A stretch of 64,000 bases of DNA from a virus. Within the stretch, counting starts at the first letter, position 1. Each line of letters starts with the position of its first letter. The notes under the pieces are model-generated. The model was not told the DNA's origin and did not search any database. It saw only the letters and a program-made list of their open reading frames with translations. The stretch is taken from positions 81,036 to 145,035 of the IMG/VR virus record IMGVR_UViG_3300045988_171725. One strand, 5' to 3'. Positions 45,267 through 45,414 of the stretch are shown in pieces. The position numbers and the translations under genes were made by a program.

Positions 45267-45288
45267 GCGTAAGATTGCTACGTTTTTG

Positions 45289-45320
45289 CGAGTTTTTCGG
45301 TGAATAAAACTCGTATTTTA
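45289..45320 (+). terminator. Hairpin plus T-rich tail after IscB copy 1 (weak terminator)
   Basis: 8-bp perfect stem CGAGTTTT (45289-45296) / AAAACTCG (45306-45313), followed by TATTTTA. Confidence 0.4.
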
Positions 45321-45323
45321 TGC

Positions 45324-45393
45324 ACCTTTGGTATAACGGTATTATCCTGGCCTCCAAAGCCATGGGATCTGAGTTCGAATCTTAGTAAGACAG
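45324..45393 (+). other. tRNA-like element (anticodon loop CT-CCA-AA, Trp-type) lacking a pairable acceptor stem
   Basis: D stem ATAA/TTAT. Anticodon stem CTGGC/GCCAT (4 bp plus one mismatch). T arm CTGAG-TTCGAAT-CTTAG. The 5' ACCTTTG cannot pair with the 3' TAAGACA. Confidence 0.5.
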
Positions 45394-45414
45394 AGTATTT
45401 ATAAGGAGAGGCTT

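Follow-up and report, generated by a model that had tools for sequence, protein, structure and literature searches.

A tRNA-Trp remnant beside an IscB gene that lacks its omega-RNA in a phage tRNA cluster: most likely the product of one recent deletion

Organization of the locus

The window analysed here is a 64-kb stretch of phage DNA, and all positions are given in window coordinates unless a contig name (L followed by a number) precedes them. The locus of interest is a phage tRNA cluster of the order Gln-Trp-Pro-Thr that has been colonised by two different IscB/omega-RNA (HEARO) elements. ARAGORN calls only three tRNA genes in the whole window, tRNA-Gln (43675-43748), tRNA-Pro (46775-46851) and tRNA-Thr (46919-46995). 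The intact tRNA-Gln(UUG), which also matches the Rfam tRNA model with 46.3 bits and is conserved in the related contigs L015, L098 and L100, forms the left anchor of the locus, and the intact tRNA-Pro(UGG) (Rfam, 57.9 bits) its right anchor; all features mapped from one anchor to the other lie on the + strand. Homology to related contigs explains every base from 43464 to 46920, as ancestral sequence (43464-43779), the IscB-1 element (43779-45256), ancestral spacer followed by positions 1-65 of a tRNA-Trp gene (45257-45385), an IscB-2 element truncated at its 5' end (45386-46703) and ancestral sequence once more (46704-46920). No GenBank phage matched the locus in a megablast search.

Both large reading frames are genuine IscB genes with RRXRR and HNH domains, and their products are 41% identical to each other. 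The frame of copy 1 stops at a TAG codon (45264-45266) and copy 2 begins with an ATG at 45415, which leaves the 148 nt between them that an initial annotation, made from the sequence alone, had singled out. It had described in this gap a hairpin with a T-rich tail, a tRNA-like element and a ribosome binding site (RBS), and had proposed three origins for the arrangement, which are taken up below. In a promoter and terminator scan of 43.0-47.3 kb, the number of candidates was not above that in shuffled sequence and none was called in the 148-nt gap.

Several other features of the cluster and its surroundings deserve mention in their own right. A free-standing HNH endonuclease gene (43049-43684; PHROG 3377, E = 1e-37) has a stop codon that overlaps the first 10 nt of tRNA-Gln, and a homologue with 72% DNA identity lies in L098 (5467-6096), directly 3' of a divergent tRNA-Pro slot, suggesting a second mobile nuclease moving within the tRNA cluster. 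A gene for a GIY-YIG/SegE-like endonuclease with C-terminal HTH domains (48040-48924), located between an AAA_33/HD gene and an RNA ligase gene, is present in L100 and absent at that position from L098 and L103, a presence/absence polymorphism of a homing endonuclease. The tRNA-Pro(UGG) slot can be followed by its conserved flanks into L100 (~4360-4436), L102 (4361-4432) and L098 (~5360-5430), and in these close relatives its stems and T loop are heavily rewritten, one T loop, for example, being of the GGCAGCA type; the rewritten versions escape ARAGORN, and Rfam calls only that of L102/L103 (44.7 bits). This is an unusually fast divergence of one tRNA gene among near-identical phages. Where the window has tRNA-Thr(UGU), L015 (5729-5812) and also L014 have another tRNA-like sequence, which is longer, shows TGT in its anticodon loop and what looks like a long extra arm, and receives no ARAGORN call. 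At the end of the cluster (47066-47113), a 13-bp terminator-like hairpin contains, in its 3' half, a perfect sigma-70-type promoter (TTGACA, 17 nt, TG-TATAAT), and L014 and L015 have kept the same layout. Finally, two Rfam tRNA matches in L003, at 3179-3296 (53 bits) and 7785-7921 (44 bits), span the full model and are 118 and 137 nt long, a length that points to insertions of about 45-65 nt within tRNA genes of this related phage.

IscB-1: a complete omega-RNA beside an interrupted gene

The boundaries of the whole IscB-1 element, omega-RNA plus iscB (43779-45256), were defined by blastn against L015, L098 and L100, which align with the window up to 43779 and again from 45257. In the ancestral Gln-Trp spacer, 62 nt have given way to the element, whose right end, at about 45256, is 66 nt away from the start of the tRNA-Trp remnant; at this site it was seen in no other contig examined. 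Its HEARO scaffold is full length (43779-43979; Rfam RF02033, 106 bits, model positions 1-211 of 211, E = 8e-21), is the only copy that the Rfam model detects in the whole window, and is ~88-91% identical to the omega-RNAs of the closest IscB-1 relatives. Directly 5' of HEARO model position 1, in the left flank of the element, lie the 16 nt CCTTCATACGGCGGGG (43763-43778), which are likely to be the guide, a role assigned from the biology of IscB; the same 16 nt followed by AAGAAG are found in the empty alleles L015, L014 and L096.

The gene itself (44007-45266) retains its RRXRR and HNH domains and is a pseudogene, with an in-frame TAA at 44832-44834 in a frame that is otherwise open to 45266. 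Nine relatives read to this position (L016-L023 and L025) have Glu there, so that the change in copy 1 is GAA to TAA; L024 has Met. The resulting product is 275 aa long, without everything downstream of the HNH insert, so that copy 1 pairs a full-length HEARO with an interrupted nuclease ORF.

A related element with 84% nucleotide identity is found in L097 (939-2449) as an almost clean insertion at the window equivalent of 39836|39838. The window itself carries the unoccupied target of this IscB-1-like element at 39836-39841, which reads ...GAATTGGAGG|ACGAAG. For this lineage, the motif that follows the target in the empty alleles is therefore ACGAAG at the L097 site and AAGAAG at the first site (...CGGCGGGG|AAGAAG); compared with each other, the two sites suggest a lineage-1 TAM of approximately A-N-GAAG. 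Set against the empty sites, the mapped boundaries of the IscB elements leave room only for omega-RNA and iscB.

IscB-2: an intact gene without an omega-RNA in cis

Copy 2 (45415-46662) is an intact ORF of 415 aa with clear RRXRR (177 bits) and HNH (50 bits, Pfam) domains. Its translation contains the motifs LGVDTGS, LETSQFD, HH..N..H and HHYLDA, and it has the N-terminal PLMP/RRXRR domain, split RuvC and HNH insert that define an IscB protein. The RBS noted in the initial annotation is indeed present (AAGGAGAGG, 45403-45411). Missing is the cognate HEARO-type omega-RNA with its 5' guide directly upstream: the Rfam model finds no HEARO in 44800-45450 even at E <= 10, in line with the earlier observation that the 148-nt gap has no room for a canonical one, and an nhmmer profile built from 15 omega-RNAs of the copy-2 type has just two matches across the 64 kb, HEARO-1 (18 bits) and the 29 nt that precede the gene.

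These 29 nt (45386-45414) are what remains of the iscB-2 leader. The leaders of relatives end in a small hairpin followed by AGAGTATTTATAAGGAGA, and the window keeps only the 3' half of this hairpin, the last of the omega-RNA extension, and then the RBS. The stretch is 100% identical to L100 2972-3000 and homologous to the leaders of L001, L004 and L007-L011. All 13 IMG/VR relatives of IscB-2, at 56-79% identity, have omega-RNA sequence upstream, 10 of them above the Rfam gathering threshold. At the other end, the IscB-2 element extends from the stop codon over 46663-46703 to a right junction, TTATAAAAAA|ATAGAGAATTG, that is identical in all filled alleles, and from 46704 onwards the window again aligns with the empty alleles L015 and L097. 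Two relatives of the copy-2 type have structured RNAs further downstream of their IscB genes, a twister-sister ribozyme in L010 (9130-9209, 54.5 bits, ~3.9 kb downstream) and a RAGATH-18 RNA in L009 (6196-6256, 57.8 bits, ~1.3 kb downstream).

The gap contains ancestral spacer and a 3'-truncated tRNA-Trp gene

The left part of the gap belongs to the ancestral tRNA-Gln/tRNA-Trp spacer (45257-45321), which is 98% identical to L015 5324-5388 and L100 2557-2621, neither of which has IscB-1 at that place. This spacer includes the hairpin (45287-45315), for which RNAfold predicts a stem of 10 bp (45287-45296/45306-45315), rather than the 8 bp first described, followed by a U-rich tail, UUUUAU (-10.8 kcal/mol, z = -2.35). 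Only three of the stem pairs are G-C and a consensus terminator scan made no call. The hairpin is present in L015, L014, L096-L098 and L100-L103, with the stem kept and the loop different in L014. As judged by this homology, the hairpin is a piece of the ancestral Gln-Trp spacer and part of neither IscB element.

The tRNA-like element that follows (45322-45385) is the front 64 nt of an ordinary phage tRNA-Trp(CCA) gene, corresponding to tRNA positions 1-65, as established by alignment to the intact genes of nine related contigs (L014, L015, L096-L098 and L100-L103), to which it is 98% identical over these positions. The initial annotation had correctly recognised a D arm, an anticodon arm with CCA and a T arm: the anticodon lies at 45354-45356 in a loop of 7 nt, and the T arm CTGAG-TTCGAAT-CTTAG ends at 45385. 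The Rfam tRNA model gives a partial match at 45329-45385, covering model positions 8-63 only, with 29.6 bits (gathering score 29) and an E-value of 0.042 for the whole window or 0.0004 for a 651-nt region; ARAGORN makes no call at the remnant. The 5' strand had been read in the wrong register, as ACCTTTG. The true 5' acceptor strand is GCACCTT (45322-45328) and it is intact; what is missing is its 3' partner, AGGGTGT followed by GCCA in L015 and L100, and with it the 7-bp acceptor stem, the discriminator and the CCA end. The full gene of L015 reads GCACCTT-TA-...-CTGAG TTCGAAT CTTAG-AGGGTGT-G-CCA. After CTTAG, L015 thus continues with AGGGTGTGCCA, and the window with TAAGACAGAG..., in which the TAAGACA of the iscB-2 leader has taken the place of the 3' strand.

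Without an acceptor stem or CCA, the remnant should be neither processed nor charged, and we therefore consider it a pseudogene. It also has two private changes, a 1-nt deletion in the D loop and a G at tRNA position 1; the first of these, as a single event, fits relaxed constraint. For the truncated tRNA with the leader, the predicted fold is less stable than that of shuffled sequence (z = +1.8 and +1.1). A tRNA split by copy 1 was considered and rejected: the complement of TAAGACA (TGTCTTA), which such a split should have left upstream of HEARO-1, is absent there and occurs in the window less often than expected by chance, and identification of the real 3' strand removed the need for this idea.

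Relatives preserve the empty and the pre-deletion alleles

An exact search with the anticodon-to-T-arm core of the remnant retrieved two IMG/VR phage contigs, L014 and L015, in both of which ARAGORN calls a normal tRNA-Trp(CCA), and a pattern taken from the tRNA-Trp 3' end retrieved two more with an intact gene, L096 and L097. All four are empty alleles, with an intact tRNA-Trp and no IscB at the site. L015 is syntenic with the window, with tRNA-Gln, spacer, tRNA-Trp, spacer and tRNA-Pro in this order and no IscB.

Filled alleles were reached through the protein. Exact-protein look-ups of IscB-2 and of the truncated IscB-1 returned nothing on record, and a protein search led to a cluster of 23 sequences (P0001) 98% identical to IscB-2; the look-up of the cluster member P0121 likewise found nothing. 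The genomic contexts of three P0001 members gave six contigs from different samples, and five of the six (L098 and L100-L103), which come from five different samples, include the upstream region. Each of these five has the same complete arrangement: an intact tRNA-Trp(CCA), the 16 nt GAACCCTGCGGTAGGT, a HEARO of 89-90 bits over model positions 1-211, a 3' extension, the RBS and an iscB gene with 97.3-99.4% DNA identity to copy 2. The presumptive guide of the L100 omega-RNA is from ...CCAGAACCCTGCGGTAGGT. From the junctions in L098 and L100, the left junction of the second element corresponds to L015 5480|5481, with 31 nt replaced; these junctions overrule an alternative that we had considered, a clean insertion at L015 5511|5512. 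The motif that follows the target of this lineage in the empty alleles L015 and L097 is ATACAT, a candidate lineage-2 TAM deduced from this one site.

An ordinary tRNA-Trp with an intact acceptor stem thus occurs in nine related contigs, the very observation that the initial annotation had named as speaking against its proposal of a novel tRNA-like module. Its third suggestion, a tRNA-Trp gene clipped when copy 1 inserted, comes closest to what we found: the gene has been clipped, at its 3' end and not at its 5' end, and by a deletion at the copy-2 junction rather than by the insertion of copy 1.

A single 285-nt deletion

The break is sharply defined. In blastn comparisons, 45257-45385 matches L100 2557-2686 at 98.5% and 45386-46920 matches L100 2972-4504 at 97.5%, and the alignments to L098 and L101-L103 are interrupted at the same place, with identities up to 99.4%. 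Pairwise alignment with L100 shows a single gap of 285 nt, and blastn and alignment together place the deletion junction at 45385/45386, with L100 2687-2971 missing and no microhomology. The homology of the window to L001 at the DNA level starts exactly at 45386. The missing block comprises 11 nt of tRNA-Trp, the 16-nt spacer that is the presumptive guide, the whole HEARO scaffold and most of the 3' extension. The junction sequence had no match among the IMG/VR viral contigs, the JGI metagenomes and the GTDB genomes, and the deleted allele was thus seen in this one assembly only.

Taken together, these observations make it very probable that one recent 285-nt deletion removed both the 3' end of tRNA-Trp and the guide RNA of copy 2, and that the locus illustrates the decay of a selfish element and not a tRNA-based RNA partner. 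The copy-2 ORF differs from those of L100-L104 by only 3-4 codons (2-3 synonymous and 1-2 non-synonymous differences), indicating that the deletion is very recent; for the same reason, the open frame of copy 2 says nothing about selection.

The history of the locus may be pictured as follows. Element 2 would originally have lain 16 nt 3' of an intact tRNA-Trp, in the order guide, HEARO scaffold, ~60 nt of 3' extension, RBS and iscB-2. A blunt-ended deletion of 285 nt would then have fused the T arm, at its final position (tRNA position 65), with the loop of the hairpin that closes the omega-RNA, leaving IscB-2 with its RBS and intact ORF and depriving it of the guide and most of the scaffold RNA. 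Element 1, a HEARO scaffold with iscB-1, would have inserted independently into the Gln-Trp spacer and acquired its nonsense mutation later. IscB depends on its large omega-RNA in two ways, for guidance and as a structural replacement of the REC lobe (review PMC13565253; bioRxiv 10.1101/2023.03.14.532601). With the guide lost and only 29 nt of omega-RNA left, no RNA-guided homing activity is to be expected of IscB-2 unless it obtains an omega-RNA in trans. The deletion spans the site at which IscB-2 and omega-RNA-2 would be predicted to cut their own flank, and we speculate that it arose in the repair of a double-strand break, either self-inflicted or made by a foreign nuclease.

Alternative explanations

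Of the other ways to read this arrangement, the one that would give the intact gene a continued use is that IscB-2 works with omega-RNA-1, the two half-dead elements forming one RNA-guided homing unit aimed at CCTTCATACGGCGGGG. The two elements, which share a strand, fail in complementary ways, an intact omega-RNA-1 being found 1.4 kb upstream beside a dead iscB-1. Either type of omega-RNA gives a full-length match to one and the same Rfam HEARO model, every empty allele contains the target with AAGAAG after it, and the ORF and RBS of iscB-2 are fully intact, as expected if the protein is still used. Were this so, IscB-2 with omega-RNA-1 would cut the Gln-Trp spacer target of naive co-infecting phages and drive the inheritance of a composite cassette, a natural case of omega-RNA sharing across lineages after reciprocal degeneration. 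We nevertheless regard it as unlikely, because the two proteins are so divergent, their omega-RNA types are only 47-53% identical and that of copy 2 is longer by a 3' extension of ~60 nt. Each copy moreover keeps its own omega-RNA in two genomes that hold both lineages, contigs 3300045988_163652 (L007 with L016/L017) and 3300030343_000052 (L010 with L021), and after so recent a deletion an intact ORF is to be expected by default. A different kind of doubt, that the 285-nt gap is an artefact of assembly or a chimera and is absent from the real phage genome, draws on the uniqueness of the junction among the public contigs of the viral, metagenome and genome collections. The junction offers neither a repeat nor microhomology on which an assembly could collapse, the remnant has its private changes in the D loop and at position 1, and the insertion of IscB-1, nonsense codon included, is a further event private to this contig; we thus hold an artefact to be very unlikely.

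The two remaining proposals of the initial annotation fare worse against the recent deletion that we favour. In favour of a working role for the tRNA-like piece, as an unconventional RNA partner of IscB-2 or as a processing module, speak its position directly next to the RBS and its preserved D, anticodon and T arms. The piece is nearly identical to the corresponding part of a normal tRNA-Trp, and five near-identical relatives have the complete tRNA separated from iscB by a full HEARO; it provides neither guide nor scaffold, folds no better than shuffled sequence and adjoins an iscB gene in one genome only, all of which makes such a role highly improbable. We give next to no credence to the other proposal, a copy-2 omega-RNA hidden in the 3' coding region of copy 1. 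It was motivated by the lack of space in the gap and could appeal besides to a short resemblance (ACCTTTG-ATAAC) between the 5' end of the tRNA and the 3' part of HEARO-1, which we examined as a possible omega-RNA relic and dismissed, since it is ordinary tRNA-Trp sequence in relatives that have no IscB. Neither the Rfam model nor the copy-2-type profile finds an omega-RNA in this region, which shows homology to IscB-1 relatives from end to end; 43801-45228 aligns at 84% to the IscB-1-like element of L097, and the position of the real omega-RNA-2 is known from L098 and L100-L103.

Relation to known systems

Had a tRNA-like module proved to serve an OMEGA nuclease, this would have been a novelty, but the evidence shows otherwise: the tRNA pseudogene joined to an IscB gene devoid of omega-RNA is an ordinary decay product and not a new kind of system. 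A modest interest of the locus lies elsewhere. This phage family offers a natural allele series for two IscB lineages in a tRNA cluster, with empty, filled intact and filled degraded sites, from which element boundaries, guides and candidate TAMs can be read directly. The series also shows how fast such elements decay, and that they can damage a neighbouring tRNA gene as they do so.

Both elements are recognisable members of the IscB/omega-RNA OMEGA family (HEARO, RF02033), part of the IS200/IS605-related ISC group. Both copies encode an IscB of the RRXRR(PLMP)-RuvC-HNH type and, as in known loci, where an omega-RNA of ~242 nt on average is located upstream of iscB (bioRxiv 10.1101/2023.03.14.532601), a full-length HEARO lies directly upstream of copy 1 and omega-RNA sequence lies upstream of the relatives of copy 2. 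Most IscB loci carry no tnpA (bioRxiv 10.1101/2023.03.14.532601) and, by their mapped boundaries, neither do the two elements in the window. Copy 2 departs from this plan in having no guide and no omega-RNA apart from the last 29 nt, and is not by itself a complete system. The remnant compares in the same way with a functional bacterial or phage tRNA-Trp(CCA): its 5' acceptor strand and its D, anticodon and T arms are 98% alike, but it lacks the 3' acceptor strand, the discriminator and CCA, has a D loop shorter by 1 nt and is not called by ARAGORN. Homing endonucleases are known to colonise phage tRNA regions, T4 SegB being an example (PMC2330249, as cited in PMC13565253). The resemblance to tRNA pseudogenes and free-standing homing endonucleases in such clusters is that selfish nuclease genes lie among phage tRNA genes, vary in presence and absence from one related phage to another and are associated with damage to neighbouring tRNA genes; the differences are that the invaders here are RNA-guided IscB nucleases and not purely protein-guided, and that the damage to the tRNA comes from a secondary deletion and not from the insertion itself.
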